DNA of 63,964 nt, the filler included, from Deltaproteobacteria bacterium (lineage in GTDB: Bacteria; JACQOV01), in assembly GCA_016202395.1 (NCBI GenBank). It is 5 parts of 5 records of this genome, joined end to end, with 100 filler letters (N's around TTAATTAATTAA, not from the genome) between each part and the next. Parts side by side here need not be neighbours in the genome. Positions count along the whole stretch, not along the records: positions 50,657 to 63,964 come from JACQOV010000019.1; 4 more parts are not named here. One strand, given 5' to 3'. Of this stretch, positions 10,622 through 63,964 are shown in pieces. The translations under genes and the position numbers were made by a program. Position 1 is the stretch's first letter, and every line of letters starts with the position of its first letter. The notes beneath the pieces were generated by a model. It saw nothing but the letters and a program-made list of their open reading frames with translations, did no database searches and had not been told where the DNA came from.

Positions 10622-10721
10622 NNNNNNNNNNNNNNNNNNNNNNNNNNNNNNNNNNNNNNNNNNNNTTAATTAATTAANNNNNNNNNNNNNNNNNNNNNNN
10701 NNNNNNNNNNNNNNNNNNNNN
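10622..10721. other. Artificial contig spacer
   Basis: N-run, TTAATTAATTAA (stops in all six frames), N-run; 100 nt. Confidence 0.98.
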
Positions 10722-27514: not shown

Positions 27515-28650
27515 AATGATCGCTCGTAAATACGATAAGTTTGATCGATGGTGGCCCCCCACCGATGAAGGAAACGATGGAGGTGATCCTCCCCTTGAGG
27601 AACCCCTCCCCAAGCCAAAGTCTGATAACCGGACTGGAGGGCCTCTCCCCACACTTTGTAAACCAGGCGCGATCCAACTCCCGCTCGTTGCCTCTCAGGG
27701 AGAACTCCCACAGCGACCACCCGAGCGCAACGCAAATCCCCCAATCGAACCAGACGAGAAACAAGAGCAGGAGAAAGAGAGCGCAAAACCGGTTTTTGAA
27801 GAATAGGATGAAAATCGGGAAGCGCCATAGCAAAGCCGATCATTTCATTTCGAAATTCCGCAACCCAAACCAGATTCGGATCCAGATAAGGGCGAATCCG
27901 ATCGGCGATCCACAGGATCTCTTGAGGAGAAACCGGCACGTACCCCCACTTCTCAATCCACGCTTTTTGATAAACTTGATGGATTTTTAGCACTTCATCC
28001 CGAAAGGAGGCAGTGCTGAGAGGCCGGATTTGAACTCCTCGTGGAATTTCAAGTCGCTCGATTTTAGAGCGAACCTCTGGATCCAACAGCCCTGTCTTCG
28101 ATTGATAAACATAGAGCTCGCGCTGTGATCTAAAACCAAAATGCTCCAGGCGCGCAGAATAGCTCGGGGGGTGATAGGGAAGGCCGATGGAAGGAATGGC
28201 ATCAAAACCCTCCGAGAGGAGACCACAATTGAAGGGGCTGAAAAAGTGGACCGGCCCCCGCATCGATTCTCTCCCCTGCTTTTTAAGCCAACCCGCGGCC
28301 GCATCGAGGAGAAAACCAAAGGCCTCGTCGTCCGGAATCGATTCGAAGAAGGAGAAGAACCCGGTCCTGTCCCGATGAAAACGATTGTATCCTCGGTGAA
28401 TCACCGCGGCAATTCGTCCCGTCGATTTTAACCCTCGATAAGCGAGAAAAGGTTGGAGCTCGACCCGTTCCATGAAGGGATTCTTCCGATTCAAAATGGA
28501 TCGATCTTCCATCCACAAGCAAGGAACCCAATGAGGGTTATTGCGATAAAGATGGTAAGGAAGCGAGAAAAATTTTTGCGTCGCCAAGAATCCTTTGGCC
28601 TGTCGAACTCGAACCACGTGTTCAAAACCTCCCGTTTGAGGTTTTAACAT
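27511..28650 (-). CDS. Bacterial ceramide synthase-like double-GNAT acyltransferase (paralog 2)
   Basis: LYRNNPHWVP, GRIAA, TGFFSFFES, RGP..GLLSEGF, terminal TYRIYE; same pattern as 54782-55906. Confidence 0.7.
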   Translation of the reverse strand: MLKPQTGGFEHVVRVRQAKGFLATQKFFSLPYHLYRNNPHWVPCLWMEDRSILNRKNPFMERVELQPFLAYRGLKSTGRIAAVIHRGYNRFHRDRTGFFSFFESIPDDEAFGFLLDAAAGWLKKQGRESMRGPVHFFSPFNCGLLSEGFDAIPSIGLPYHPPSYSARLEHFGFRSQRELYVYQSKTGLLDPEVRSKIERLEIPRGVQIRPLSTASFRDEVLKIHQVYQKAWIEKWGYVPVSPQEILWIADRIRPYLDPNLVWVAEFRNEMIGFAMALPDFHPILQKPVLRSLSPALVSRLVRLGDLRCARVVAVGVLPERQRAGVGSRLVYKVWGEALQSGYQTLAWGGVPQGEDHLHRFLHRWGATIDQTYRIYERSL

Positions 28651-32665: not shown

Positions 32666-33640
32666 CTACACTGTTCTTTGCACCCCTGTCAACCTCTTCG
32701 GAAGGGATCGATACCTCTTGTAAAACTCTTCCCCTCGCCCCATCCTCTTAATCCGATCCATGAGCGTGGTACTATCCCGATACCCCAAGATCCGGGCGGT
32801 CTTCGCTAAATTCCCATGAGCCACCTCGGTCGCCACCCGCCAAACCTCCTCATCATTCTCCACGATTCTCTCCTTTGCCTTCCCCTTCCCAATATATTTG
32901 ATCGCCGTTGACACATACACCCCCACCCGCTTCGCCGTCTCCGTGTAATTGCGGGTCTTCTCAAAGATCTTCCGCATCTCCTCCACCTTCTCTAAAGGGA
33001 GGCCCTGATACTTTCTGGGCTTTTGAACCTCCGACCGCATCAGCGGAGGATTCGGAAAATCCTCCCGAAACGCTTGCCGCCGCTCCTCAAAACTATCTCC
33101 CCGAGGATAGGCCCGTTCAATCAATCTCCACACCGTCGTGATCGATATCTTTAATCTCTTGGCTACCCCCGGCACGCTCCCCTGCATCTCCTGAATCCGA
33201 GGCCACAGATCCCTTTGAAAATCAAGCTTCTTCCGAACCCCCACCCCCTTGGGTAAAGGATATCGAATACGCAATAACTGCCTCCGCCCCATTCTTTTCA
33301 GACGATGCCCAATCGCACTGGTCTGCCGATATCCCAGCCGACGGGCCGCCTCCGAGAGGTTCCCCCCCACCTCCAATATCATCTTCCAGATATCTCCATC
33401 GGAGACCCGCCTCTGCTGCAGTTTCCCTTTCCCCTTCCCCACGTACTCTCGCACTGTCTTGGAAGCCACCCCCACGCGACGAGCCGTCTCCGAGTAATTG
33501 CGCGTCTCCTCAAAAACCTCCCGAATCCTCCTCACCTGCGACAAGGGAAGAGCATCCCACCCCACCACCCAACTCACCGATCTTTTCCTGGGATGGATCG
33601 TTCCCCCCTTCTCCACTGCCATGTGCTGATCTTTGATCAT
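32666..33640 (-). CDS. Basic protein with five tandem HTH-like modules
   Basis: TRNYSETARRVGV / TRNYTETAKRVGV, GNLSEAARRLGY / GNLAKTARILGY and GSVPGVAKRLKIS; GAGG RBS. Confidence 0.7.
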   Translation of the reverse strand: MIKDQHMAVEKGGTIHPRKRSVSWVVGWDALPLSQVRRIREVFEETRNYSETARRVGVASKTVREYVGKGKGKLQQRRVSDGDIWKMILEVGGNLSEAARRLGYRQTSAIGHRLKRMGRRQLLRIRYPLPKGVGVRKKLDFQRDLWPRIQEMQGSVPGVAKRLKISITTVWRLIERAYPRGDSFEERRQAFREDFPNPPLMRSEVQKPRKYQGLPLEKVEEMRKIFEKTRNYTETAKRVGVYVSTAIKYIGKGKAKERIVENDEEVWRVATEVAHGNLAKTARILGYRDSTTLMDRIKRMGRGEEFYKRYRSLPKRLTGVQRTV

Positions 33641-33673: not shown

Positions 33674-34477
33674 TTAGTTTTTCTGGCGCCCTTTCCTTAA
33701 ATTTTTTTCTTCCTGTAAAGGGGTGTTGACATCCCCCACCGGATCTTTCTCATCCCGAATAAACCGATCCAATCGCTGCAAGTGCCGAATCAACCGCTCC
33801 ATATCCGGCTCCATATAATCCTTCCAGATCTTGACCAACCCTTCGACCAATTCCCTCAACTCCCTCTCTCCCACCTTCCCCTTCTTCGCTTGTTCCCCAT
33901 AAGCCCCCAACCGCTGGCCAATCACCTGATAAAAGCCATAGACCGTCGTGGAAGGATTGTTCACATGGTGCCCAATCTCATCCACAATCCGCTGCCGAGA
34001 TTCCAGCCGCGCAATCGCGATGTCCTTCTCCTTAGAGGCCTTCACCTCCACCAATGCCGCTCGCAACTCCTCATGGCCCTGCTTCACCACCTGCCGTAAA
34101 ATGCAGGTCTCCACCGCACTCTGAATCCCCCTCACCACTTCCAAAATCCGTCGGTCAATGGGCTTTTCATAAAAATGGTCCACATGCCCTGCATTAATCG
34201 CCTCTTTCATCAGCGCCTCACTGACGTGCCCCGTCAACATGATCCTCGGCGCCTCCGGAGCCACCTTCTGACACCCCTGTAAGAACTCAATCCCGCTCAT
34301 CGAATCCATCTTCTCATCCGTAATCACCACCCGAATCTCAGGATGCTGCCTCAATAACTCCAACCCCTTGGCTCCCGTCTCCGCCGTGAATACCTTAAAA
34401 TACTCGCTCATGTACGTCGCAAACGTCCTTAACTGATGCGCCTCATCGTCCACGTACAAAATCGTTGACTTTTCCAT
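33674..34477 (-). CDS. Receiver domain plus coiled coil plus HisKA(DHp)-like segment, no HATPase
   Basis: YVDDE, ITDEKM, MLTG, EKP; H-box-like EIGHHVNNP; ORF ends with no N/G boxes. Confidence 0.8.
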   Translation of the reverse strand: MEKSTILYVDDEAHQLRTFATYMSEYFKVFTAETGAKGLELLRQHPEIRVVITDEKMDSMSGIEFLQGCQKVAPEAPRIMLTGHVSEALMKEAINAGHVDHFYEKPIDRRILEVVRGIQSAVETCILRQVVKQGHEELRAALVEVKASKEKDIAIARLESRQRIVDEIGHHVNNPSTTVYGFYQVIGQRLGAYGEQAKKGKVGERELRELVEGLVKIWKDYMEPDMERLIRHLQRLDRFIRDEKDPVGDVNTPLQEEKNLRKGRQKN

Positions 34478-34478
34478 C

Positions 34479-34732
34479 CTAGTCCCCCCTTTCTAGGTCC
34501 AATTCCTTAACTACCATAAACTGCAACGTAAAGGTAGTTCCCACTCCTATCTGACTCGCCACCTCGATCTGTCCTCCCCACTTATCCATCGTCTCCTTGG
34601 ATAAAGCTAAACCCAGGCCGGTTCCTCTGCCCACCTCCTTGGTGGTCTGGAACCTCTTAAACAGATTCCCTAATCCTTCCGGGCTCATCCCACAACCGTT
34701 ATCACAAATCTTCACCCCCACCCACTCCCCAA
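34479..34732 (-). CDS. Histidine kinase C-terminal HATPase fragment (5' end lost at contig break)
   Basis: DNGCGM, FQTTKEVGRGTGLGL, GTTFTL. Confidence 0.88.
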
Positions 34733-34832
34733 NNNNNNNNNNNNNNNNNNNNNNNNNNNNNNNNNNNNNNNNNNNNTTAATTAATTAANNNNNNNNNNNN
34801 NNNNNNNNNNNNNNNNNNNNNNNNNNNNNNNN
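34733..34832. other. Artificial contig spacer
   Basis: N/TTAATTAATTAA/N. Confidence 0.98.
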
Positions 34833-40626: not shown

Positions 40627-40726
40627 NNNNNNNNNNNNNNNNNNNNNNNNNNNNNNNNNNNNNNNNNNNNTTAATTAATTAANNNNNNNNNNNNNNNNNN
40701 NNNNNNNNNNNNNNNNNNNNNNNNNN
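40627..40726. other. Artificial contig spacer
   Basis: N/TTAATTAATTAA/N. Confidence 0.98.
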
Positions 40727-49616: not shown

Positions 49617-49751
49617 GATCTGCGCGTGCGAATCGTAACGCATTGGGTCAAAAGGGTTCGCTAAAGTTTAAAAATTCGTTTGAGTTTTAGTGGGCTCTGT
49701 GGTACAAACAGACAGAATGCAATCCAGTCAAACTATAGGGGCGGCTCTGCT

Positions 49752-50556
49752 ATGAAACCTATCCAAAAAATAGCTCTTATTTCTCCGAGCCCTCGTTTCT
49801 TGGATTATTCCCCCAATTCTCGTTTCCCAAATTTTAATGGCCGTTTTATTATGCCAGATAGTGTTCTTCCCTTAGTAGGGACGATCGTAAAAAATGCAGG
49901 TTATGATGTCGAGGTTTTTATGGAGGGGATTGCTCCGATTCCCTGGGAGCGAGTTTTAGAGGCTGATCTTGTTGGCTTCTCTGCTGTAACTTGTAACATC
50001 AACCGGGCTGTGGAAATGGCAGCTAAAGTTAAGGCTATCAAAGATGTTCCTACGATTCTCGGTGGACCTCATGGGTCTATGGTGCCGGAACACGCCGTCC
50101 AGCATTTTGATTATGTAGTGAGAGAAGAAGGGGAAGAGACAATCATAGAATTGCTTGACGTTCTCAGTAATCGGGGTGATTTGACTCGTATAAAAGGGAT
50201 ATCCTACTTAAAGAATGGGAACGTCTACCACAATCCATCCAGAGAATTAGCTAACCATTTTGATGTGGTTCCAGATTCTTCCCTGATTTATGGATACAAT
50301 CGGTTCAATCCACTCAAAGTTTTTCTACAAGCAAAAGCCCATGTTCACTTTTTAGAGACATCTCGAGGGTGCCCTTATCCTTGTAGCTTTTGCTGGCGAA
50401 TTGGTGGAAAAAAGATGAGGCATCGCTCTGTTGAATCCGTGATAAGGAATATTCAGCAAAATACGAAATTTTTTAAGGGTCTCCCAAATTTAATGATTAT
50501 ATTAGATAGTTATTTTGGAGTGAATCGAGAAAAGACAAAAGAAACAGCGGAACCGC
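49752..50556 (+). CDS. Cobalamin-binding radical SAM protein (3'-truncated)
   Basis: B12-binding domain (VGFS, GGPH, EGEET), then SRGCPYPCSFC. Confidence 0.9.
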
Positions 50557-50656
50557 NNNNNNNNNNNNNNNNNNNNNNNNNNNNNNNNNNNNNNNNNNNN
50601 TTAATTAATTAANNNNNNNNNNNNNNNNNNNNNNNNNNNNNNNNNNNNNNNNNNNN
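50557..50656. other. Artificial contig spacer
   Basis: N/TTAATTAATTAA/N. Confidence 0.98.
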
Positions 50657-50800
50657 AGACCAGATTCCCAGCCTTTGCAGGCATGACATAGGTGAGGCTC
50701 ATCATAGCCCCACTATACCTCCCTCTACCCCATCTTCCCATCAATACTCCCACTGTTACCGATGTATCTCAACCTCTTCATGGTTAAGAAAGCCCCTTTT

Positions 50801-52354
50801 TCACTCCATAAAATCTCCTCGGCGCGTATCGTCATCTTCCCCCTCCTTCGCTGCTGGCAAACTCACAACAAATTCTGTGCCCCGATGGACTTCACTCTTG
50901 ACCTCAATCCTCCCTTGATGCCTTTGAATCACCTGAAACGTAATCGCGAGGCCCAACCCCAAACCTTTCCCCATCGGCTTCGTTGTAAAATACGGGTCAA
51001 AGATCCGAGAGAGGTCCTCTTGCGGAATGCCAGAACCATTATCTTGAATCGACACCTTCACCCACTCCCCATCGACCCAAGTCCGAATCACCACCCTTCC
51101 CCCCTTCCCATCCGGAATCGACTGGCAGGCGTTGGAAAGGAAATTGATGAACGCTTGGTTGAGTTCCGCTAAAATCCCCCAAACCTCCGGCACCTCTCCA
51201 TAATCCTTCACCACCTCCACCTTCCCTTTGTACTGCGGCTGCACCATCCGATACACTGTATCCAAACTCCGATGAAGATCCACGCGCTCTCTCTTCCCGC
51301 TCCCTTTATGGGCAAACTCCTTCAGCCCCTGAATCACCGAGTACATCGCATCAAAACTGCTCTCTAATTCCATCGTGATCTCCTTGATCTCCTCTAACTC
51401 CTGGGGAGTGGAAGACTCCCCTCTTTGACTCAAATCCCTCAACTGATCTTGAACACCCTTTAAACGATACACCAGAAAACTGATTACATTCAGAGGAGAG
51501 CCCATTTCATGACTCACTCCAGCCACCAAATTTCCCACAGAGGCCATCTTCTCACTCTGAATGAGCATCCGCGTTTGCTCCTCGACTTTGTTTTCAAGGT
51601 TCTTGGCGTAGTCTTTGAGCTGGGTTTGAGCCTCTTTCAACCCGAGATGGGCTTGACTCAATTCCTGATTCTTCCGAGTTAATTCATTGAGTTGAGAACT
51701 GATCGTGGAATACATCTCCTGGATTTGCTGTTTCTGACTCTCTAGCTCGGTATTTTTATACTCTAAATTTCTGCTATAAAGATCCAGTTCCGTTAAAGCC
51801 TTTGACAAAGCTTCTGATTTCTCGCGGAGCTTCGCTCCCAAAGTCCCCGAGGCATATCCCACCAGGAGCATCAGTCCACTCGTGGTAAAGAGCTGCATCA
51901 CGCCGTTCTTTTCCAACCCACTGCTAGGATCCCACGAGTTGTAATACCACACTCCCAAATACCCCGCCACCGATACCGCTGCAATCCAGATTCCTCCTCC
52001 CTTTTGAAGAACCAATCCCGCATAGAGGATAATCAAGGCGTATAAAATTAAGAAAGGGGAGTATTCGACAAGCTCCAAGTAGTGGATTAAAGCGCTGGCA
52101 AATAGAGCGTCGAGGGTGAGTGCAAGGTAAAGGGAGAGGGTTGCAAATCTCTCCTTCTGGCCTACAGCGAAATAGAGGCCTGTCAGAAAAAACTGAGATA
52201 GAAAGAGGATCGAGACGGGGCCCAAAGGAAGCTGGATTACTTTAAGCAGGGAGAAATTAAGGATAAGAAGAAAGAGTATAAGGACAACAACAGCCCTAAA
52301 GAAGAGATAAGGGCCTCTTCCCTCCTTCGTTATTGCAACTGGAATAATGTCCAT
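50801..52354 (-). CDS. Membrane sensor histidine kinase (about 6 TM, coiled coil, HisKA, HATPase)
   Basis: TM bundle, [36 protein letters not shown]. Confidence 0.92.
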
Positions 52355-52395
52355 GCCACTTCCCTTTATCTCCTACCTCCCTTGTTGAAGACAGG

Positions 52396-54768
52396 TTACG
52401 AAACAATCTCTTCCTCGGGGGGCAAGGATTTAATTTGCGAGACACTTTCTCTCTTATTCCGTTTAGCGACAATCGGTCTGAAAAGGATCAGCAACGCCGG
52501 CAACAAGAACAGATCTCCGAGCAAAGCCACCAAAATCGCAAAGCTGGACAACAACCCAAATCGGGCCGCTGGTAAATATTCTGAAAGACCAAGCATCGAA
52601 AAACCAATGGCTAATACGATTGCGGTAAAAATAATCGGCTTTCCCACAAGCCTAAAAGTATTTCGTATCGCCTCCTCATAATCTTTCCCTTCTTGTAACT
52701 CTCTTTTAAATCGAAAAAGATAATGCACGGTATCATCCACTACGATCCCGAATAAAATGCTCGCCACCATCGCTGAGCCAACATCTAAGTTCACGTTAAG
52801 CCAACCCATTAGCCCTAGCGTCGCTACAATTGGGAAGAGGTTTGGGAACAGAGCCAATACCCCTAGAGAAAGAGATCTCATCACAAAAATCATCACAATC
52901 GAAATCACAACAAGAGCCACACTAAAACTTTTTATCTGACTGGAAAACAACAAATGCACAAGGTGGTGCTGAAGTGTATAGGTCCCCGTTACTTTCACCT
53001 TCATTAAATCACCCACTTGATTTTGGATATCCGACTCTATCCTTTTAGTAAACGCAGCCGCTTCCCCAGATGGAAGCAACCATAAGGACATCCATACTAC
53101 CCCTTTCGAGAAGTCTTGGTTAGCAACAACATTGAAAAGGTGCTCTGGACCAAAATTCTCCAAAATTGAAAATAGACGACCAAGATGATCGTTTGGAAGC
53201 TCGTATTCTCCAGAATTACCATTGAGGGCTTTATGAAACCCTTTAATCGGGTCTATTATCGAAAAAGTATGGCCAACCTCAGATTGGATATCAAGATAGC
53301 GATGAATCTGATCCATGCTTTTTAAGATCTCCGGATCTTTTAAGCCATCAGATCTTCCCGTATCCAAAACCATCCATGCGGGTACCCATCCACCATAATG
53401 TTTTTCCCCAAATTGCATCATCTGAATAGATTCCGTGTTTTTCCTGTACAATTGATCCCAACGGGTATCTGCCTTCAACCTCGTAATCCCCCAACCAAAC
53501 AATGTAATAAGAACAATCGCTAAATTAAAAATCCAAATGGGATGACGGAGTGTCAGATCCACTACACCAGGAATCACCTTCCTCTCTACCCAACCCTCCA
53601 CTCGACTTTGATCTTGTAAGCTAGAAGACCTCGCAACCTCTCGCAAGCCAAACACCCATATGAGAAACGTAATGAGCAATACCACCACCATCCCAAAAGC
53701 GGATATGATCCCAAATTGCTGAATCACTTCCACATTAGCTGCATTTAAAGAAATAAAACCACAAAAGGCCGTAAGGGTATTAAAAACACACGGGGGCCCC
53801 ACCTCCCGGATCGTTTGCTGGATCGCTTCCTGTTTCGAAAGACTCTGTGACAAAATGCGATAATGAGCCACTAAATGCGTGAGATCTAAAACGGAGTACA
53901 ATAGAAAGATCACAAAAAGCCCTTGAGATATCGCCGTCAACGGATAATCCATTCCACCCGCAAAGCCTAAAGCCCATACCGACCCCAAAAGAACCGTTAG
54001 TGCGCTGATCCCCACCACTCTCCAACTCGAAAATAGCAAATACACCGTTAAAACCATGAGCAAAAGCATTGCCGGAATGGCTCGGGTTGAATCCTCTCTG
54101 AAGATTTCCTCTAAAAGAACCTCGGTATACGCCAATCCACTAATGTAACAGTGAACATCAGCCAAAATACATTCCTCATCCACAATCTTGCGAATTCCTT
54201 TTACGATCTGTTTTCGATCTCCATGCTCCCAAGAGTCACGATCCGCATAAGTCCAAATAGCAGAAGCTTGAAGATCTTTGGAAATCAACCCCACTTTTTC
54301 AAATAAAGGGGTACTTAGGATAGTTTCTCGCACTTGGGATAAATCTTGAGGAACTGAACCTGAGAGCACTTCCCTTAGAGAAAATATCTCAATTTGTTCA
54401 TCTGAGGCAGCCAGGACGTCTTGATTCGTTAAGCTAATCACAAAACTCATCCCCTTTACCTTCTCAAAACGTTCTGTCATTCGATCCATCATGCGCAGAA
54501 CATCTGGAGTGAAAATTTGAGATGCTTCAACACCAATCCCTATTGCTTCGACGATATTGAAATCCTTTAAATATTCATTCTTGTAATACAATAGCTCTGG
54601 ATCGTCGGGATCAAACATGGCCTCTTCACGCATATCCATCCGAACATCCAAAAGGAAATACCCAAAGATTAATGTGGATACAGTTAGAATGGTTACAACT
54701 ACCCAAGGTCGACCCCACAACCACTCTAAAACTTTTTGCCACTTTGGTGCTTTATGATCCACTTTCAC
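52396..54768 (-). CDS. MMPL/RND-superfamily lipid transporter
   Basis: Two repeats of TM, large loop, five TM; GIVVDDTVH motif. Confidence 0.88.
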   Translation of the reverse strand: MKVDHKAPKWQKVLEWLWGRPWVVVTILTVSTLIFGYFLLDVRMDMREEAMFDPDDPELLYYKNEYLKDFNIVEAIGIGVEASQIFTPDVLRMMDRMTERFEKVKGMSFVISLTNQDVLAASDEQIEIFSLREVLSGSVPQDLSQVRETILSTPLFEKVGLISKDLQASAIWTYADRDSWEHGDRKQIVKGIRKIVDEECILADVHCYISGLAYTEVLLEEIFREDSTRAIPAMLLLMVLTVYLLFSSWRVVGISALTVLLGSVWALGFAGGMDYPLTAISQGLFVIFLLYSVLDLTHLVAHYRILSQSLSKQEAIQQTIREVGPPCVFNTLTAFCGFISLNAANVEVIQQFGIISAFGMVVVLLITFLIWVFGLREVARSSSLQDQSRVEGWVERKVIPGVVDLTLRHPIWIFNLAIVLITLFGWGITRLKADTRWDQLYRKNTESIQMMQFGEKHYGGWVPAWMVLDTGRSDGLKDPEILKSMDQIHRYLDIQSEVGHTFSIIDPIKGFHKALNGNSGEYELPNDHLGRLFSILENFGPEHLFNVVANQDFSKGVVWMSLWLLPSGEAAAFTKRIESDIQNQVGDLMKVKVTGTYTLQHHLVHLLFSSQIKSFSVALVVISIVMIFVMRSLSLGVLALFPNLFPIVATLGLMGWLNVNLDVGSAMVASILFGIVVDDTVHYLFRFKRELQEGKDYEEAIRNTFRLVGKPIIFTAIVLAIGFSMLGLSEYLPAARFGLLSSFAILVALLGDLFLLPALLILFRPIVAKRNKRESVSQIKSLPPEEEIVS

Positions 54769-54781
54769 CTCCTAATTTCTT

Positions 54782-55906
54782 TCATAAAGGTTTTTCATAA
54801 AGACGGTAGGTTTTGTATTTTTTGCCACCCATGAGTTCGATTCCTCTATTGATGCTTTCATTATCTTCTAAGGTAAGTGAAGGTTCTGCTTCCTTATACC
54901 CCTGTTTGAGACCTCGAAGATTCGTCTCAACGTACAACAAAACACTTAAATTGGCTAAACTCTTACCTCTAAAAGCACGCTTGATACCCATGGCAAATAC
55001 CCTCGCGCTGTTCCACCGACGTTGAGTGACAGCACGAAATAGCTTCACCCAATGCAAAGGGAAGAGTCTCCCATCGAAATGACGTAACAACTCATTAATG
55101 TTGGGAAGGGTCATCGCAAATCCAGCAGGTTCTGAATGAATAAACACAAAAAATACCATTTCAGGATCAGCAAAAAATCTGAGCTCCCTCGCAAAATGAA
55201 TAGCCTCCTCTTCAGAGAAAGGAATGAATCCCCAATGCTTCTCCCAAATTTCATTAAAAAGATCCACTAGTAATCGAACATCTGCATCATATCTTTTCAT
55301 GTCGAGAGAGCGAATTTCTACCCCCGGGCATCTGCGAGCTTCCTCGGCGATTTGGATTGCTTCATGGCTCAAATCTCCTACACGGTAATGCCAAGCATAC
55401 CAATCTTTGGCCTTTTTAAAATCGCATGCCTCCATTAATCCTGCATAATAATGGGGGTTGTGGCCATTTAAGATGTAAGGAGGTGTACCAAACCCTTCAA
55501 CTAAAATCCCAATCTCATCCTTGAGTGTAAAACTCATGGGCCCTAATATTTTGTCACACCCCTGTTTTCTTAACCAATTGCTAGATGTTTCAAATAGAGC
55601 GTTGGAGACTTCCATATCATCAATCGATTCAAAGAAACCAAAAAAACCTGTCTTATCTTTGTAAATTTTGTTATGACGTGGAATAACCTGGGCCGAAATT
55701 CGACCCACTGGCTCCCCATTCTTAAAAGCCAAAAATAACTCTGCGCTATTGTATTTAAAAAAGGGGTTTTTCTTGGGATTTAAAGACCTCTTCCGTTCCC
55801 AGATGAGAGGAGGAACCCAACAAGGATCATCTTTGTAGATCTTCCAAGGGAGTTTGATAAAAGTGCTCCTGAGAGACCGAGTGGTGACAGGAACAATGTC
55901 CACCAT
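54782..55906 (-). CDS. Bacterial ceramide synthase-like double-GNAT N-acyltransferase
   Basis: FIKLPWKIYKDDPCWVPPL, GRISA, GFFGFFESID, GILVEGF, HNPHYY, KTYRLYEK; adjacent to spt. Confidence 0.78.
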   Translation of the reverse strand: MVDIVPVTTRSLRSTFIKLPWKIYKDDPCWVPPLIWERKRSLNPKKNPFFKYNSAELFLAFKNGEPVGRISAQVIPRHNKIYKDKTGFFGFFESIDDMEVSNALFETSSNWLRKQGCDKILGPMSFTLKDEIGILVEGFGTPPYILNGHNPHYYAGLMEACDFKKAKDWYAWHYRVGDLSHEAIQIAEEARRCPGVEIRSLDMKRYDADVRLLVDLFNEIWEKHWGFIPFSEEEAIHFARELRFFADPEMVFFVFIHSEPAGFAMTLPNINELLRHFDGRLFPLHWVKLFRAVTQRRWNSARVFAMGIKRAFRGKSLANLSVLLYVETNLRGLKQGYKEAEPSLTLEDNESINRGIELMGGKKYKTYRLYEKPL

Positions 55907-55912
55907 GAGTGC

Positions 55913-57181
55913 TTATACCTCCTTAGAATTAAAGAGAGCATCAAAATTCCAGGCGCGGGCTCTGTGAACAAATTTTTTCGGAACTTCGGTCTGGCTCTTC
56001 AGAATCCCAAACTCAGGAGCGACTTCCCCAAATGCTTTCAAAACTTTATCCAAATCCTCGGTAGTATGACTTGCTGTAAAAGAAGTGCGAATAACTGCTT
56101 GACCATAGGGAACCGCAGGATACAATACAGGGGTAGCAAAAACATCTCGCTCAAAGAGAGCCTTCACTAATTGAACCGCTTTACCCTCATCACCTACGAA
56201 AATAGAAATAATAGGCATCTTTGATTCAATATATGAGAGGCCCAATCTTCTAAATCCATCATGAATATAACTTGTATTTTGCCATAGGCGATCAAAGATT
56301 TGAGGCTCCGTTTTCATAATCTCTAAGGCTTTTAACGCGGCAGCGGCAGAAGCAGGAGGTATAGCAGCCGAGAGTATAAACCCCTGAGAATGGTGGCGGA
56401 TGTAATCTATAATCTTGCGAGGGCCCGTGACAATCCCACCGATCGAAGCAAACGATTTTGAAAGAGTCGCCATGATTAAATCAACCCCTTCTGTCAAACC
56501 AAAATAGTTGGCCGTTCCTCTGCCCTGATCTCCAAGCACCCCAATGCCGTGAGCATCATCTAAATAAAGATACGTTCCAGGAAACTGCTTTTTGATAGTA
56601 ATAAGTTCATTCAGATCCACAATATCCCCTGACATTGAAAAAACACCATCAGTTACAATCAGTTTAGCGGAATCCTGAGGCAACTCACCTAAAACCTTCT
56701 TTAAATCACTCATGTCGTTATGATGATACTTCACTGTTGTAGCTCGAGAACCTCTGCAACCTGCAACAATGGAGCCATGATTCTCCGTGTCAGAAATAAT
56801 GAAGCTCCCCTTCTCAGCCAAACAAGATATTACCCCATAGTTGGTTAAAAAGCCGGTGCTAAATACTAATGCATCCTCTTTCCCAAGAAAGTCAGCAAAC
56901 TCCCTCTCTAGTTGATCATGGATAATTGTGTTTCCATTAAGGAGTCTTGATCCTGTACAACCCGTTCCTAATCGATCGGTGGCTTGCTTGGCCGCTTGTT
57001 TAACGCGAGAATCGTTGGTTAAACCTAAATAATCATTCGAACAGATGACGATAACGCGCCTGCCGTTATAGATAGCCTGAGGGCCAAAGCAATGCTCCAT
57101 GGATTTAAAGAAAGGATAAACACCAATGGCTCTACCCATATCGGCAGCTTCAAAATCGTAGCATTTTTGAAAGAGGTCCAT
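55913..57181 (-). CDS. spt: Serine palmitoyltransferase-like alpha-oxoamine synthase (PLP)
   Basis: GVYPFF N-terminus, SNDYLGL, GSRLLNG, NHGSI, DDAHG, TLSKS PLP lysine; resembles bacterial SPT more than BioF/Kbl. Confidence 0.78.
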   Translation of the reverse strand: MDLFQKCYDFEAADMGRAIGVYPFFKSMEHCFGPQAIYNGRRVIVICSNDYLGLTNDSRVKQAAKQATDRLGTGCTGSRLLNGNTIIHDQLEREFADFLGKEDALVFSTGFLTNYGVISCLAEKGSFIISDTENHGSIVAGCRGSRATTVKYHHNDMSDLKKVLGELPQDSAKLIVTDGVFSMSGDIVDLNELITIKKQFPGTYLYLDDAHGIGVLGDQGRGTANYFGLTEGVDLIMATLSKSFASIGGIVTGPRKIIDYIRHHSQGFILSAAIPPASAAAALKALEIMKTEPQIFDRLWQNTSYIHDGFRRLGLSYIESKMPIISIFVGDEGKAVQLVKALFERDVFATPVLYPAVPYGQAVIRTSFTASHTTEDLDKVLKAFGEVAPEFGILKSQTEVPKKFVHRARAWNFDALFNSKEV

Positions 57182-57341
57182 TTGAGCTGAATCCAGTTAA
57201 CCACGAATTCTTGAATTGTTCAACCAAAACACAGTTTGCTATTTGACTCGATGCGTTACTCTTCGGTGCGTTACTCCAAGGGGGGCATGGCGCTAATCTC
57301 GATCTGTGGAGAGATTAAACTAGAAACTGGGGCGGCAACGG

Positions 57342-58235
57342 TTAGAACACGCGGATGAGGCGGACCATGCGACTCTGAACATTCTCAAAATGGAGCGCCT
57401 CGGCCACTGCCACCAACTCCCCCTGGGGGCCCAAGAGTTTAACTTTCCCTGGCTTGAGAGAAAGATCAAAAGCTTTCAGGAGCGGTGTTTTCCCCCGCCG
57501 AACCGCGGAGGTCTGTTCCTGGGAAAGCTGAATGCTGGGGAAGGCAGACAATGCGTCGGCTAAAGGGATCATCTGTTTTTCAACCTCCCCCCGCGATTTT
57601 CTAAGTTCCTCCAACGTCACCGCCTGACCCACTGTAAAAGGGCCAAACTGGGTCCGCTCCAACCGCTCCAGATGAGCGCCGCATTGAAGCGCTCGTCCCA
57701 AATCGCGAGCCAGGGCCCGAATGTAGGTCCCCCGAGAACAATGAATAAATAAAGTGACGTGCGGAAGCTCTACAGAGATAAGATCACATCGGGAGATATG
57801 AACTTTTCGCGGTTTAAGCTCAATCTTTTCCCCCCGACGGGCCCGTTTGTACAACGGAGTCCCATGCAATTTAATGGCAGAATAGAGAGGAGGAACCTGC
57901 TCTATCTCTCCACGAAACTGTTTTAAAGCCTCTTCAATCTTATCGCGATCGATCCCTTCAATAGAGGCCTCTTGGGTGATCTTTCCTTGAGCATCATCGG
58001 TGTCGGTCTCCACACCGAGAATTAAGGTTGTCACATACTCCTTGTCGACATCGGCCAAAAAAGGGGTCAGTTTCGTAGCCTCGTTCACTAAAATCGGCAA
58101 GACCCCTTCAGCCAAAGGGTCCAGGGTTCCGCCATGCCCCACTTTGGAACCGGGGAGAAGTTTCCGAATCTCTTCAACACAATCGTGGGAGGTGAGCCCT
58201 TTGGGTTTGCTCAAAACGATCAAGCCACTCTTCAT
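57342..58235 (-). CDS. truB: tRNA pseudouridine(55) synthase
   Basis: GHGGTLDP, PPLYSAIK, CSRGTYIR. Confidence 0.96.
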   Translation of the reverse strand: MKSGLIVLSKPKGLTSHDCVEEIRKLLPGSKVGHGGTLDPLAEGVLPILVNEATKLTPFLADVDKEYVTTLILGVETDTDDAQGKITQEASIEGIDRDKIEEALKQFRGEIEQVPPLYSAIKLHGTPLYKRARRGEKIELKPRKVHISRCDLISVELPHVTLFIHCSRGTYIRALARDLGRALQCGAHLERLERTQFGPFTVGQAVTLEELRKSRGEVEKQMIPLADALSAFPSIQLSQEQTSAVRRGKTPLLKAFDLSLKPGKVKLLGPQGELVAVAEALHFENVQSRMVRLIRVF

Positions 58236-59212
58236 GATTTTCTCTGTTCTTTGATCTGCCAATCGATAGCGGCGTAAATTTTTTTCTTCACTTCTTCTAA
58301 AATCCCCTGAATATTGCCCCCCGCCGCATTATGATGCCCTCCACCCTCGAACTGAGCCGCTAATCTCGCTACATCGTATTTCCCTTTCGATCGAAAAGAG
58401 ATCCGCCACTTCCCTGTCTCCAATTCCCTTAAAGAAAAAGCAAGTTGAACCCCACGGATCGACCGAGGATATCCCACAAACCCTTCGACATGCTCGCTGG
58501 AGGTCCCTGTTTTTCGAAACATCTCTTGGGTGACAAAAATAGAAGCCACCTCCCCAGCACTGCGGACCTCGAGCGTTTGCAGAACAAGACCGAGAAGATC
58601 CAGTCGCCCTTTAGGGTGAGAATCGTAGAGCTCCTCGGCGATTCGAGCCGGCGAGGCTCCCGCTCGAATCATCTGGGCAGCAATCTCCATTGCCTCCGGG
58701 GAGGCATTGCTGTAATGAAAAGCGCCGGTGTCGGTGTAGATAGCGGTGTAGATACAGGAAGCGACCGCGGAGGTCACCGGGAAGGAGGCCGCTTTCAGAA
58801 GATGGTAAACCACCTCTCCACTCGCGCTGGCTTTAGGATCGATGATGTTGATCTCTCCGTAGCCCGGATTGGTAATGTGATGATCGACATTGATTAAGAG
58901 TTGCCCCGGGCGAAATTTCTCAAACCCTTCTCCGACGAGTTTTAAATCTCCACAATCGACAACAAAGACGGCGTCATACTTTTTAGAACCTGGAATCTGA
59001 TGGACAACCTTGTCTGACATCGGAAGGAACCGAAGCATGTAAGGGACTTCGTCTTCATTGTAAACGACAACCTCTTTCCCCGCTTCTTGGAACGCATTGG
59101 CCAACGCGAGAGCTGATCCCAACGCATCCCCTTCGGGATTGCGATGGGTCGTCACCAGAAACCTTTTTCCTTTTTCAATGAGCCGAGCGGCCCTCTCAAT
59201 CGCCTCTTTCAA
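58232..59212 (-). CDS. nrnA: DHH/DHHA1 phosphoesterase (NrnA)
   Basis: HRNPEGDA, VDHH, TDTG, GGGHHNAAG. Confidence 0.9.
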   Translation of the reverse strand: MKEAIERAARLIEKGKRFLVTTHRNPEGDALGSALALANAFQEAGKEVVVYNEDEVPYMLRFLPMSDKVVHQIPGSKKYDAVFVVDCGDLKLVGEGFEKFRPGQLLINVDHHITNPGYGEINIIDPKASASGEVVYHLLKAASFPVTSAVASCIYTAIYTDTGAFHYSNASPEAMEIAAQMIRAGASPARIAEELYDSHPKGRLDLLGLVLQTLEVRSAGEVASIFVTQEMFRKTGTSSEHVEGFVGYPRSIRGVQLAFSLRELETGKWRISFRSKGKYDVARLAAQFEGGGHHNAAGGNIQGILEEVKKKIYAAIDWQIKEQRKS

Positions 59213-59580
59213 GAATCCTTCTCCTCTATTGAGTTCAATTCCTCTTTTCGAATTTGGTCGAGCAAGGTGTCAATCTTATGCGCCTGCTCCTCCACTTCAT
59301 CGTAGGTGAAGATCACCTCGGGCTGATAGCGCAAACGCAAATTTTTTCCTAAATGACGAGAGATAAAAGGAGCAGCGCTCTCCAGTCCTTGCAGAGATTG
59401 CCGTTGTTCCTCTTCCGCCCCCATGACCGTGAAGAAAACGCGCGCCTGTCGAAGATCCGGGCTCATCTTCACAGCCGTCAGAGTAACCCAACGGATCCTC
59501 GGATCCCTTATCTCCCGCAAAAGGAGCATCGAGACCTCTTCCCGAATAAGGTCTGCGACCCTTTCCGCACGTCTGGACAC
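59209..59580 (-). CDS. rbfA: Ribosome-binding factor A
   Basis: RAERVA, DPR, SPDLRQA, LRYQP. Confidence 0.95.
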   Translation of the reverse strand: MSRRAERVADLIREEVSMLLLREIRDPRIRWVTLTAVKMSPDLRQARVFFTVMGAEEEQRQSLQGLESAAPFISRHLGKNLRLRYQPEVIFTYDEVEEQAHKIDTLLDQIRKEELNSIEEKDS

Positions 59581-62082
59581 CTAAGATCCCTCGTTCCGGG
59601 CTTCAGGCCTCGCATCATTCTCCACCGCCGCCGAGAGTTTGGCGGCAGTCTCTTCAATGGCAAAGGCCTCTAGAAAATCCCCCACTTGGATGTCATCAAA
59701 GTTCTCAACCCCAATGCCGCATTCAAAGCCATTGGCAACCTCTCGAGCATCATCCTTAAATCGTTTGAGAGAGCGGATCTTTCCTTCGAACATCGTCTCT
59801 TTGCCCCGTCGAACACGAATCCGAGCGCTGCGGGCAATCTTTCCGTCCGTGACGAAACATCCCGCGATCGTCCCCATTTTGGAGACTTTAAACAACTCTC
59901 GCACCTCCGCATGCCCCAAAAGCACCTCTTGGGCAATCGGCTCAAGTAACCCTTCCATCGCTTTGCGAACTTCATCCACCAGTTCATAAATGATCTCGTA
60001 GAGCTTAATCTCAACCCCTTCCTGTTTCGCCGTGTCTTTGGCCTTCCCATCGGATCGAACGTTAAAACCGATGACCACCGCATCGGAGGCAGAGGCCAGG
60101 AGAACATCATTCTCGGTCACATTTCCGACCCCCTTATGGATAATATCGATTCGAACCTGCTCCGTCCCCAAACGCTGCAAGACCTGTTCGATGGCCTCCA
60201 CGGATCCCATCACATCCGCTTTCAAAACCACTTGGAGCTCTTTAATTTTCCCCTCTTTCAATCGTTTGTAGAGATCTTCTAAGGTAGTTTTGCTCCCTTT
60301 TTGTTCGATCGCTCCCTTTCTTTGTTGGAGACGATTTTCCATGACTTCTCGGGCGTCCTCCTCATTAGCAACGACGGAGAAGGTCTCCCCTGCGCTCGGA
60401 AGTTCGCTTAACCCCAAAACCTCGGTGGGATAGGAAGGCCCCACCTGTTGAATTCGTTCCCCTCGATCATTCTGAAGGGCTCGCACACGACCCTGCGTCA
60501 CGCCACAAACCGCAATATCCCCCACCTTGAGAGTCCCCTGCTGCACAATCACTGTGACCACAGGCCCACGTCCTTTATCGAGCCTCGCCTCAACGACGGT
60601 TCCGAAAGCCCTCTGCGAAGGATTGGCTTTCAGTTCCAAAACCTCTGCTTGAAGAAGGATCATCTCCAGCAAGGTATCCACCCCTTTTCTCTGCTTGGCA
60701 GAAACAGGGACGAAAATATTCTCTCCCCCCCACTCCTCTGAAACAAGCCCTACCTCTGCAAGACCTCGTTTGACCTTTTCAGGATCAGCGCCAGGTTTAT
60801 CGATTTTATTGATCGCTACGATAATTGGAACATGGGCCGCCTTGGCATGATCGATCGCCTCTCGCGTCTGCGGCATCACTCCGTCGTCGGCAGCGACAAC
60901 GAGAATAACAATGTCGGTGATTTTCGCTCCGCGAGCTCGCATCGCTGTGAAAGCTTCATGCCCCGGGGTGTCGAGAAAAACGACATCCCCTTTTGGAGTT
61001 GCCACAGCGTAGGCCCCAATGTGTTGCGTGATCCCACCCGCCTCTTTATCAGCGACTCGTGTCTCACGAATGGCATCCAATAACGTAGTTTTTCCATGGT
61101 CCACATGCCCCATCACGGTAACCACCGGAGGACGAGGTTTGAGATCCACAGAGTCCACGGTGGGAGTTGTGGGAAGAACTTCTTGCTCTCTAAAGACCTC
61201 TTGCTGCATCTCAAAACCAAACTCGTGAGCCACCAAAGAGGCTGTATCAAAATCGATGGACTGGTTCAGACTGACCAGACTCCCCATCTTCACTAACTTT
61301 TGAATGAGCTCCGTCCCCTTGATTCCCATTCGATGCGCCAGTTCCCCAACAGCCACAGAATTAGCCATCTTGATGATCCGCTTGCTCGCTTTAGGAGTAG
61401 TGATATCAGTCTTCTTGCCGACCCGTTGTAATGGTGTCCTTCTTTTCTTTCGAGAAGTTCCAATCAAACGCTCAGTGGTATCTGTAAGATCTCCAAAGAG
61501 ATCCCCCCCCGTTCGAGCCAAAACTCGTCGTCGAAGTTTCTTTTCATCCTCTTCTACCAAACCGCCTAGCTTCTTTTTGCGAGCCTTCCTCTTCGCCTCC
61601 TCATCCAGATCGAGCTGGATCCGTTGATCCAACACCTTCGCTGTTTTGACTCCGGGGGTCACTGAAACCTCTTTTTTGGGAGATATTCCCTCACTGGAAG
61701 GCTCGGACTTCGCTGGAGACAAGGCTGTTGGAGGGGCCACCGGTTCTAAAGGACTGGACTTTGAAGGAACGGGCTCCAAATGGACAGGGACGGAGGGGGC
61801 AATCTCTTCAGAAGGCTTGGACTGGAGTTCCTCTTTGGGCGTCTCTAGAGGCTCTGGAGGAGGAACGCTGCCCGCTCGACGGCGGATAACAGTGGATTTT
61901 ATCCGTTTCTCGACGACAGGAGCCTTCCCTTCGGCTCCGAAAAAACTCTGAATCTTCTTAATATCTTCTTCGGAAAGATTGCTCGCATGGGTTCGAACCT
62001 CAATGCCCATCTCCTTGAGTTTGTCGATGAGCTCTTTGGCTTCGATTCCCAGTTTTTTGGCCAGTTCGAAAACTTTCATCAT
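59581..62082 (-). CDS. infB: Translation initiation factor IF-2
   Basis: [25 protein letters not shown]. Confidence 0.98.
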
Positions 62083-62102
62083 CTTTTAAAATATCCTTCT
62101 TA

Positions 62103-63413
62103 TCAAACATCGCTGGAACTCTTGGAAGAAGATTCCGAAACGGATGATTCCACGCACACCTCTGGAGTCTGCGTCGTTTGGATAGCCAGAAGCTTCGCAG
62201 CCCCTTCTACAATCCGTTGCGCTTTTTCCAATCCCACACCTGGCAGGATACGAAGATCCTCCACCTTCGCTTTCGAAAGATCTCCTAAAGAATGGTACCC
62301 TTGGCTGAAGAGAAGCCCCGCGAATTTATCGTCCACCTCTTCAATTTGACAAAAATCCGTTTTGGCCTTATCCACTTGCTCCTTGACTTTAGATTCACTT
62401 TGGATGTCAATATTCCATCCTGTGAGTTGAACCGCGAGCCGAACGTTTTGGCCCTTGCGACCTATCGCTAATGAGAGCTGTTCATCGGGGACAATGACCT
62501 CCATCGATTTGCTCGCCTCATCCATAACCACCTCCGCTACCTCGGCAGGGGCCAAAGCGTTACAAACAAGCTTGGCGGGATCGGAAGACCATGGGACGAT
62601 ATCAATCTTCTCCCCACGCAATTCCTGCACAACACTTTGCACGCGAGATCCCTTGACCCCAACACAAGCCCCCACGGGATCCACATCAGAATCACTGGAA
62701 GCCACAGCAATCTTGGCGCGCCCTCCCGGTTCCCTTGCCGCAACTTTAATCTCCACAATCTTCTCGTAGATTTCAGGAACCTCCACTTCGAAGAGTTTCT
62801 TCAAAAAATCCGAGCTCGACCGTGAAAGAATAATCTGAGGTCCCCGAGTGGCCTTCTCGATCTCAAGCACATAGGCCCGGACACGATCTCCCACTCGGAA
62901 TCGCTCACCGGGAATCTGCTCCCGAGGCGGAAGAATGGCCTCGGTCCTGCCCAAGTCCACCACAAGATTGCCCCGCTCGAAGCGTCTCACAATGCCGTTC
63001 ACAATCTCCCCTTGGCGCTGAGTAAATTCATTGTAGATCACTTCACGTTCGGCATCTCGAACCTTTTGGATGATGACCTGTTTGGCCATCTGAGCTGAGA
63101 TTCGGCCAAAGCCTGAGATATCCATTTTGACGCCCAAGCTATCCCCCAACTGGCACTCGGGATCCAGTTTGGACGCCTCTTGAAACGAGATCTGAGAACT
63201 CGGATCTTCAACCTTTTCCGCAACAGTCTTAAACTCAAAAAGCTCCACTTCACCCACCTCTTCATTAAATCGAGCCTCGATCTCCTTCTCGATGCCAAAT
63301 TTCTTCTTGGCAGCGCTCAGCATTGCCGACTCAATGGCATCGATCAGGACCGCTTTGTCGATCCCTTTGTCTTTTCCAACCTGTTCTATCACTCGATTCA
63401 AATCAATAAACAT
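62103..63413 (-). CDS. nusA: Transcription termination factor NusA
   Basis: FGRISAQ, S1 and KH domains, AIGRKGQNVRLA. Confidence 0.97.
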   Translation of the reverse strand: MFIDLNRVIEQVGKDKGIDKAVLIDAIESAMLSAAKKKFGIEKEIEARFNEEVGEVELFEFKTVAEKVEDPSSQISFQEASKLDPECQLGDSLGVKMDISGFGRISAQMAKQVIIQKVRDAEREVIYNEFTQRQGEIVNGIVRRFERGNLVVDLGRTEAILPPREQIPGERFRVGDRVRAYVLEIEKATRGPQIILSRSSSDFLKKLFEVEVPEIYEKIVEIKVAAREPGGRAKIAVASSDSDVDPVGACVGVKGSRVQSVVQELRGEKIDIVPWSSDPAKLVCNALAPAEVAEVVMDEASKSMEVIVPDEQLSLAIGRKGQNVRLAVQLTGWNIDIQSESKVKEQVDKAKTDFCQIEEVDDKFAGLLFSQGYHSLGDLSKAKVEDLRILPGVGLEKAQRIVEGAAKLLAIQTTQTPEVCVESSVSESSSKSSSDV

Positions 63414-63424
63414 GCCTCAAACTC

Positions 63425-63913
63425 CTATGACTCCAATCGATGAGCTTTAACGATCGATTTCCACGGGATCCTCGTATCTCCTCTCCCTTCCACTTGAATC
63501 TTAATCCCAAAATCTTCCACTAAAAGAAGTTCTCCTTTAAAATTGCGCGCCCCCCCAATAGATTCTCTTGTCTTCACGCGCACGAGCGAACCCTTGTGTC
63601 TATCAAAATCCCCCCTCTTTTTCAATGGACGCTCTAAACCGGGTGAAGAAACCTCCAGGTGATACCGATGAGGGAGGACCTCCTCGACATCCAAAAGGGT
63701 GCTCACCTCCTCGCTAAAACGACTGCAATCCCCCACCGTCACCCCACCAAGAGCATCGATATAGAATCGCAGCACCCAACCCACTGGCTCCCGCCGATAC
63801 TCTATAGCGACAAGTTCCAACCCCTGACTCACCGCCACAGGAGTTACCAGTTCCTCGATCTTTTGCTCAATCTGTTGCTCAATCTGTTGGATGACCGGAT
63901 CCTGCAACATCAC
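63425..63913 (-). CDS. rimP: Ribosome maturation factor RimP
   Basis: LEVSSPGLERPL; upstream of nusA. Confidence 0.95.
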   Translation of the reverse strand: MMLQDPVIQQIEQQIEQKIEELVTPVAVSQGLELVAIEYRREPVGWVLRFYIDALGGVTVGDCSRFSEEVSTLLDVEEVLPHRYHLEVSSPGLERPLKKRGDFDRHKGSLVRVKTRESIGGARNFKGELLLVEDFGIKIQVEGRGDTRIPWKSIVKAHRLES

Positions 63914-63964
63914 CCTCCCTCAGGAGCCTGTCGGAGTAATGCTCCGGCTGCAAATTTCACTGGC

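Follow-up and report, generated by a model that had tools for sequence, protein, structure and literature searches.

In a window of 63,964 nucleotides, the whole stretch of DNA analysed here, from the metagenome-assembled genome (MAG) of a Deltaproteobacteria bacterium (GCA_016202395.1), we identified a cluster of four minus-strand open reading frames (ORFs) in which genes for an Spt-like alpha-oxoamine synthase (AOS) and a YghO/bCerS-family N-acyltransferase are followed by genes for an MMPL-type RND transporter and a six-transmembrane (six-TM) histidine kinase. A paralogue in the same genome, in which transporter and kinase are fused, shows at the level of sequence that the kinase and this type of transporter form one unit. 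We tentatively regard it as quite possible that Spt and bCerS make an oxo-ceramide, that the MMPL protein exports it and that the kinase reads either the transporter or the lipid load. The gaps between the four genes are 6, 13 and 41 nt, and the genes are as follows.

55913-57181, minus strand: Spt-like alpha-oxoamine synthase P0001, 422 aa, the first gene of the cluster.
54782-55906, minus strand: YghO/bCerS-family GNAT-like N-acyltransferase P0002, 374 aa.
52396-54768, minus strand: HAE3/MMPL-type RND transporter P0003, 790 aa, with a GTG start.
50801-52354, minus strand: histidine kinase P0004, 517 aa, with a six-TM PilS-like N-terminus, a coiled coil and an NtrB/AtoS-type core.

This ORF list is in accordance with a first-pass annotation of the same DNA, which had described four co-oriented genes with these gaps, and the identities that it gave them (SPT, ceramide synthase, MMPL and sensor kinase) were borne out by family searches, synteny and a phylogenetic tree. 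It had also described the operon as devoid of genes for acyl carrier protein (ACP) and reductase, and indeed neither is present on contig C101, which carries the cluster.

P0003 matches the Pfam family MMPL (PF03176) at 130.1 bits, against a cut-off of 20.5, and the family Sterol-sensing at 30.7 bits; with the NCBIfam HAE3 model TIGR00921 it reaches 203 bits, below the cut-off of 352, and the MmpL3 and HpnN structures that have been solved are no more than distant relatives. When 1.84 billion representatives clustered at 50% identity, among which orthologues may hide inside the P0362 cluster, were searched exhaustively without a profile, one close relative was returned, P0362 (1259 aa), whose MMPL part is 48-49% identical to P0003, all others being at most 31% identical. 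P0362 is an MMPL protein fused to a six-TM kinase, with Pfam matches to MMPL, Sterol-sensing (49.1 bits), HisKA and HATPase_c. Its residues 793-1252 align with residues 8-512 of P0004 at 35% identity, the N-terminal membrane domain included. The corresponding gene lies in the same genome, outside the window.

Contig C90:31881-35660 (L179:9882-13661), minus strand: fused MMPL::kinase ORF, 100% identical to P0362.

The genome therefore holds two paralogous modules of an MMPL protein and a six-TM kinase, one fused and one split, and because the two parts are a single polypeptide in the paralogue, transporter and kinase would form a functional unit in the cluster as well. The split arrangement does not result from breakage of a fusion gene, since transporter and kinase are read in different frames, the kinase gene is preceded by a purine-rich leader of its own, and the junction is covered unchanged by independent assembly contigs. 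Upstream of the fused copy is a radical-SAM gene, and downstream are genes for a REC-HATPase hybrid (434 aa) and a REC protein (270 aa). Eight HAE3/MMPL paralogues were found in the genome, three of which (P0003 included) are followed by or fused to a kinase, and four directly follow radical-SAM genes, two of these with B12-binding domains. Such B12/radical-SAM-MMPL cassettes lie on contigs C74, C36 and C90, and a truncated radical-SAM gene at the end of contig C98 (window 49680-50612) probably belongs to another. Other members of the HAE3 family (P0457, P0473, P0391, P0428 and P0494) are fused to short-chain dehydrogenase/reductase (SDR)/epimerase, LolA-like or cNMP-binding domains or to TPR repeats, among which the MMPL-SDR fusion stands out, given that ceramide is reportedly reduced in the periplasm.

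The Sterol-sensing matches of P0003 and of the fusion raise the question of whether the MMPL protein is a pump at all. It might instead be a lipid-binding receptor that gates the kinase through its sterol-sensing-type domain (SSD) with little net transport, a bacterial counterpart of SSD receptors, and the covalent kinase fusion in the paralogue and the cNMP-binding domains fused to other family members would fit such a role. We consider this distinctly unlikely. The Asp and His residues of TM4 and TM10 that are typical of proton-driven RND pumps are retained in P0003 (H298, D678 and H682 are invariant, and D679 and T680 nearly so, in an alignment of 30 sequences), and SSD matches are common in ordinary MMPL/HpnN-type exporters and occur in all the paralogues here. 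A broader idea, which we hold to be unlikely, is that the MMPL protein and the six-TM kinase, which are separate in the cluster but joined on contig C90, represent a new class of bacterial lipid sensor, in which an RND protein with a sterol-sensing-type domain would inform the kinase directly of sphingolipid or another lipid in the membrane.

P0004 matches HATPase_c at 89.8 bits and HisKA at 19.9 bits, the latter below the cut-off of 26.9, and carries an H-box, SHEMGSPLN, that is conserved in the fusion P0362; as judged by these domains, it is a two-component sensor histidine kinase. Its residues 1 to about 175 contain six hydrophobic segments with very short loops, of which a crude hydropathy scan flagged four, and this membrane region is followed by a long coiled coil, the H-box and an ATPase domain of the NtrC-family kinase type. 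No Pfam TM-sensor family, 6TM_PilS (PF25323) included, was matched at E <= 0.001. The ESM Atlas model of residues 1-185 nevertheless resembles 6TM_PilS with TM-scores of 0.81-0.84, and we take this modelled likeness as a structural lead rather than as family membership. In 400 other genomes the TM domain gave weak matches in 15, the best at 31 bits and none in an ORF longer than 971 aa, and an MMPL gene lay beside the match at none of the five loci inspected. Among 5.8 billion proteins, in a search limited to lengths of 284-905 aa, so that fused forms fall outside the range, no match covered more than 70% of P0004. Complex prediction for P0003 with residues 1-195 of P0004 gave a score of 0.00, that is, no answer, which weighs neither way on binding.

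The first gene of the cluster encodes a protein that, so far as its sequence places it, is Spt-like and is not BioF, Kbl or CqsA. P0001 has a Pfam Aminotran_1_2 match of 196 bits, and its top NCBIfam model is the CFB-type Spt NF047600 (452.7 bits; cut-off 640), ahead of a BioF/Kbl-related subfamily (386.7 bits), BioF (381 bits) and Kbl (357 bits); the other Spt models gave 346 bits (NF047599; cut-off 500) and 287 bits (NF047603; cut-off 670). Its best match in the PDB is the Sphingobacterium Spt at 350.8 bits, with lower scores for Thermus AOS (286-288 bits), cysteate acyltransferases (224-254 bits), Kbl (244 bits) and CqsA (107 bits). To set these scores in context, they may be read against a survey of bCerS loci that covers 80 loci from species genomes and 80 from metagenomes, across many phyla, all at most 52% identical to P0002. 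Among the 73 AOS ORFs found in these loci 47 were scanned, and an Spt model was the best for 45: 39 of the CFB type, at 384-599 bits and with none reaching 640, and six of the BetaP type, above their cut-off. The remaining two had no match at 1e-112, and E. coli BioF and Kbl, run as controls, matched only their own models. The score of P0001 falls within the range of this bCerS-linked set.

The first-pass annotation had proposed a phylogeny against Spt, CqsA, BioF and Kbl, and the resulting tree groups P0001 with Spt. In this tree of 100 AOS rows (IQ-TREE quick run with SH-aLRT support only, free of CqsA, HemA and cysteate acyltransferase references; row L174, a mis-extracted 778-aa ORF with a branch length of 10, is to be disregarded), P0001 lies within a 90-row clade of bCerS-linked AOS (SH-aLRT 94) that includes the annotated Spt of E. 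coli UTI89 and six proteins above the beta-proteobacterial Spt cut-off. Outside it fall E. coli BioF and Kbl, the BioF of the same genome and four TIGR01825 proteins, the separating branches having SH-aLRT values of 84-94. A CqsA-type reference was searched for in 201 genomes, and none was found. The alternative of a BioF or Kbl was rejected on the tree placement, the ranking of models and the presence of a separate true bioF gene (489.9 bits, above its cut-off), which adjoins bioA and bioD on contig C79.

In an alignment to 3a2b, all 11 of the 11 SmSPT active-site residues listed in the accessible text of PMC10196870 are kept in P0001, most of them being common to the whole AOS family. SmSPT N52, G80, S81, H138, S185 and D210 correspond to N49, G77, S78, H135, S182 and D208 of P0001, and A212, H213, T241, S243 and K244 correspond to A210, H211, T239, S241 and K242, the PLP-lysine included; M271, a main-chain contact, is replaced by I269. 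As far as the accessible part of PMC13692747 goes, one serine among the conserved residues is alanine in the cysteate enzyme. Residues ~395-422 of P0001 form a C-terminal tail of ~25 residues that is shared by P0124-P0133 and by the Spt of survey locus L090 (clade proteins of 417-423 aa); most other bCerS-linked AOS have 393-397 aa and no such tail.

An AOS-superfamily enzyme tightly linked to a kinase with a six-TM, minimal-loop sensor would also fit a quorum-sensing circuit, and CqsS is likewise built as a six-TM sensor with minimal loops. On this account, an extension of the model put forward in the first-pass annotation, a diffusible N-acyl aminoketone or ceramide-like product would be released by the MMPL protein and detected from outside by the kinase, as in CqsA/CqsS and LqsA/LqsS. 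The enzyme, however, scores only 205.3 bits with the CqsA-type model NF005526 (cut-off 428), and we rejected a CqsA-type assignment on this value and on the gap between the CqsA and Spt structures given above. Moreover, a second acylation by bCerS would yield a two-tailed membrane lipid, presumably a poor diffusible signal, the kinase-transporter fusion points to sensing at the transporter, and the kinase is unlinked to spt-bcerS in every other locus examined. A signalling role of the CqsA/CqsS kind is thus weakly supported, and we regard it as very improbable.

The second gene product, P0002, has a marginal Pfam GNAT match and matched neither an NCBIfam model nor a PDB sequence; its family is very large (more than 6,700 matches). 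It is 36% identical to YghO of E. coli UTI89 (E 1.8e-72, over residues 5-373 of 374), its only homologue in that strain, and the best match of YghO in the present genome is P0002 (240 bits), followed by a paralogue at 147 bits. In UTI89, yghO is divergent from, and lies beside, genes for a fatty-acyl-AMP ligase, an NAD-dependent epimerase, ACP, spt, lptG and lptF. P0002 is also 43% identical to the gene that closes the sphingolipid locus of a Rhodospirillaceae MAG (L021), which contains a fatty-acyl-AMP ligase, an SDR, ACP, an Spt (626 bits, above cut-off), two further genes (one with a DAGK catalytic-domain match), LptF, LptG and a fatty-acid hydroxylase. On the basis of synteny with these two loci, P0002 is assigned to the YghO/bCerS family. 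Caulobacter CCNA_01212 is reportedly an experimentally defined bCerS. In its accessible portion, a preprint (10.64898/2026.04.12.717747) names a sphingolipid operon in E. coli UTI89 and gives the Caulobacter locus as spt, acp, cerR, an ACP-synthetase gene and bcerS, together with LptF/G/C homologues, a set of genes that corresponds to the content of the UTI89 and L021 loci.

A second YghO/bCerS-family gene lies in the window itself (27511-28650, minus strand, contig C91); its product is 30% identical to P0002, and the gene sits beside trmI and an Omp85 gene with no AOS gene nearby. About half of the YghO/bCerS-family loci elsewhere likewise have no AOS nearby, so the family may have other roles. 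The closest bCerS homologues, P0005 (66% identical) and P0006 (64%), and the Spt homologue P0125 are all reported from a contig of 72,953 bp, and this matching length suggests a tandem or duplicated bCerS in a relative and the co-occurrence of Spt and bCerS in the closest relatives (53-66% identical).

Across the 160 surveyed loci, an AOS gene lies directly upstream on the same strand at 38 of the 80 genome loci (74 of which have room for it) and at 20 of the 80 metagenome loci (55 with room), and somewhere in the locus at 49 and 30, respectively. The Spt-bCerS pair is therefore widespread and an ordinary addition to the known pathway; the four-gene layout is not. The closest survey locus, L090, whose Spt and bCerS are 57% and 52% identical to those described here, reads TetR, Spt, bCerS and NAD-dependent epimerase, and an SDR like that of L090 occurs in 66 of the 160 loci. 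In the cluster, the MMPL and kinase genes occupy the position of the CerR-like reductase of L090.

Starting from the observed gene identities, fusion and distribution, we infer the product, the direction of transport, the sensed cue and the output as follows. To judge from its family, the Spt-like enzyme would join an amino acid, most likely serine, to a long-chain acyl thioester and yield a 3-keto long-chain base, which the YghO/bCerS-family enzyme would N-acylate in the cytoplasm to an oxo-ceramide. In the ceramide pathway as described in the accessible text of PMC11087976, Spt and bCerS act in the cytoplasm, with acylation before export, and reduction takes place in the periplasm, so that the acylated keto-lipid must cross the inner membrane. 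The HAE3/MMPL protein is a candidate for moving it out of that membrane because its gene starts 13 nt from bcerS, because it has both MMPL and SSD domains and retains the Asp and His residues of TM4 and TM10, and because there is a precedent in Myxococcus xanthus, where, according to the accessible part of the preprint (10.64898/2026.04.12.717747), an MmpL gene directly downstream of spt has been proposed to encode a sphingolipid exporter. The six-TM kinase, nearly devoid of extramembrane loops, would sit against the transporter, report its activity or the lipid load of the membrane and signal into a phosphorelay that adjusts envelope-lipid genes. As for its history, a lineage-specific MMPL-kinase cassette may have been duplicated into an spt-bcerS operon at the position held in relatives by the ceramide reductase gene.

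Several observations weigh against this proposal of oxo-ceramide synthesis, export and transporter-linked sensing. P0001 reaches no curated Spt cut-off on any of the models, and its amino-acid substrate is not readable from sequence and stays an inference, since swaps of first-shell residues left amino-acid specificity unchanged (PMC13692747, accessible part). The combination spt-bCerS-MMPL-kinase, for which the first-pass annotation had suggested a neighbourhood search, is absent from the 160 other bCerS loci: none contains an MMPL-like gene (tblastn, E <= 1e-5), 10 contain kinase-like matches, with none adjacent, and L090 is a canonical three-gene set with neither. The four-gene layout was found nowhere else among the loci examined and has so far been observed in one lineage, here represented by a single uncultured groundwater genome. 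No CerR orthologue was found in this genome by tblastn with the SDRs of L090, UTI89 and L021 (best matches 29% over 302 aa on contig C6 and 29% over 258 aa on contig C55; the L021 SDR had no match), although the genome is 89% complete and the gene may sit in the unassembled part. No response regulator is assignable to the kinase, because the contig ends in a repeat. Finally, the fused copy follows a radical-SAM gene rather than sphingolipid genes, and the MMPL-kinase module is therefore not specific to sphingolipid. The first-pass suggestion that the linked kinase senses the lipid accordingly stands in part: the fused paralogue ties the kinase to the transporter, but the link to the lipid is not demonstrable.

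The main rival explanation is that the genes are chance neighbours: a general cassette of the lineage for export and for the sensing of membrane lipid or envelope stress would have landed beside spt-bcerS and displaced cerR, the sphingolipid being neither moved nor sensed. The position of the fused module and of another MMPL-kinase pair behind radical-SAM genes, the lack of MMPL genes from the other bCerS loci and the base composition agree with this explanation. The AOS and MMPL genes each have a G+C content of 0.429 and the GNAT-like gene one of 0.416, all below the 5th percentile (0.445) of 1.5-kb windows (sd 0.027) of the genome, which has 0.493 overall, and the kinase gene has 0.486; the upstream genes from truB to nusA have 0.508-0.519. 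The first-pass description of the cluster as mostly more AT-rich than the flanking housekeeping genes thus holds for three of the four genes, the kinase gene being ordinary. On the other hand, the shared strand and the gaps of 13 and 41 nt suggest co-transcription, and in four other cassettes the MMPL gene also directly follows a lipid-type biosynthetic gene, so its position looks meaningful. The published pathway, moreover, needs an exporter (PMC11087976, accessible text), and Myxococcus has the spt-MmpL pair (10.64898/2026.04.12.717747, accessible part). We consider chance proximity rather unlikely, though it deserves to be kept in view.

A possible source of acyl chains lies on contig C103 (C103:46570-51440; L181:6571-11439), at the contig end, where genes for a fatty-acyl-AMP ligase, an acyl-CoA dehydrogenase, ACP and an aldehyde-dehydrogenase-like protein stand in a row adjoining a 923-aa hybrid kinase. 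This ligase shares 33-34% identity with its counterparts in sphingolipid loci and might provide the Spt-like enzyme with acyl-ACP.

With respect to its context, the cluster lies on contig C101, which makes up window positions 50657-63964. The window consists of five contigs (C88, C91, C94, C98 and C101) of a MAG of 1.9 Mb in 108 contigs that is 89% complete, joined end to end; the joins are marked by runs of N around a 'ttaattaattaa' spacer (window 10622-10721, 34733-34832, 40627-40726 and 50557-50656). Because separate contigs meet at each join, the genes on its two sides are not neighbours, and the B12/radical-SAM gene at 49680-50612, which had been taken for the left flank of the cluster, in fact sits on another contig. 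The source organism belongs to an uncultured, deep-branching groundwater lineage and is the sole genome returned for its phylum. Upstream of the cluster, on the same strand, lie rimP-nusA-infB-rbfA-nrnA-truB, and the contig terminates 144 nt past the kinase stop. Two further features border the genes.

57182-57341, minus strand: 160-nt spacer between truB and the Spt-like gene, the probable site of the cluster promoter.
50657..50780, no strand given: dispersed 124-nt repeat, which starts 20 nt past the kinase stop and ends the contig.

A scan for sigma-70 promoters and terminators found nothing beyond shuffle expectation. The 124-nt repeat has at least 10 copies in the genome that are 96-100% identical and often lie at contig ends; besides the one in the window, they include copies on contigs C11, C39, C51, C43, C37, C82, C107, C79 and C73. 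Logan contigs from groundwater cover it at 83-124x, compared with 4-12x for the sequence nearby, and continue from it in several different ways, and none of the Logan contigs on C101 bridges the terminal copy. All three gene junctions of the cluster are bridged without indels by Logan contigs from four groundwater runs of one study, which may include the source sample and are thus not independent support. At the end of contig C91 (window 33674-34732) are a cut-off C-terminal kinase fragment and then a REC protein of 267 aa, which contains an H-box-like segment and shares 43% identity with the REC protein encoded behind the C90 fusion, and a 324-aa multi-helix-turn-helix (Fis-type) protein comes next (window 32666-33640). 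This contig end may continue C101 as the missing downstream part of the cluster.

How sphingolipids leave the inner membrane outside the LptF2G2 systems of Caulobacter and Sphingomonas is described as an open question in the accessible part of the preprint (10.64898/2026.04.12.717747), where LptF2G2C2 are said to serve export in Caulobacter and the routes are suggested to differ between taxa. As far as its gene content goes, the present locus offers a concrete candidate exporter. The fused paralogue in turn indicates, at the level of sequence, that a loop-less kinase works as a unit with an RND lipid transporter, and if this is true, transporter-coupled sensing, so far a matter of ABC transporters and secondary carriers, would come to include RND lipid pumps. 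A limited full-text literature search found no description of an RND-kinase fusion among its top-ranked papers, and the coupling or fusion of an RND lipid transporter with a PilS-like kinase appears to be undescribed. A similarly limited search found no report on the regulation of bacterial sphingolipid synthesis. Should the reading of the pair as a lipid sensor be true, bacterial sphingolipid homeostasis would gain its first regulatory circuit, and SSD-based lipid sensing would have an analogue in prokaryotes.

The first-pass annotation knew of no described system with this layout. That view needs qualification for the transporter, since an MmpL gene directly downstream of spt has already been noted in M. 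xanthus, and it appears to hold for the kinase coupling. Both M. xanthus and the present genome have an MmpL-family RND gene just downstream of the sphingolipid synthesis genes with no dedicated LptF2G2 set evident; the accessible part of the preprint (10.64898/2026.04.12.717747) mentions no kinase for the M. xanthus neighbourhood, and the likeness is one of gene position only. With the Spt-bCerS-CerR pathway of Caulobacter and UTI89, the cluster shares an Spt-like AOS gene followed directly by a YghO/bCerS-family gene. It differs in having no CerR, ACP or acyl-ACP synthetase gene, in carrying an MMPL gene instead of an SDR gene in the third position, and in an Spt that is CFB-like and below the curated cut-off. 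With CqsA/CqsS and LqsA/LqsS, it has in common an AOS-superfamily enzyme linked to a multi-TM kinase, but the enzyme here is far from the CqsA type, an acyltransferase and a transporter lie in between, and the kinase is tied to the transporter.

The kinase itself invites two further comparisons. PilS, according to work attributed to Kilmury and Burrows in 2016, reportedly senses pilin within the inner membrane, and P0004 shares with it a predicted six-TM bundle with minimal loops and a DHp and HATPase core of the NtrC-family type. In contrast to PilS, P0004 has no 6TM_PilS sequence match and no pilin genes nearby, and its partner is an RND transporter, to which the kinase is fused in the paralogue. 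Loop-poor kinases that depend on an adjacent transporter are known as BceS with BceAB and DcuS with DctA/DcuB. Like them, P0004 is a kinase without real sensor loops whose pairing shows as gene adjacency; unlike them, it is paired with an RND/HAE3 lipid transporter, not with an ABC transporter or a secondary carrier, and for this pair a natural fusion exists.

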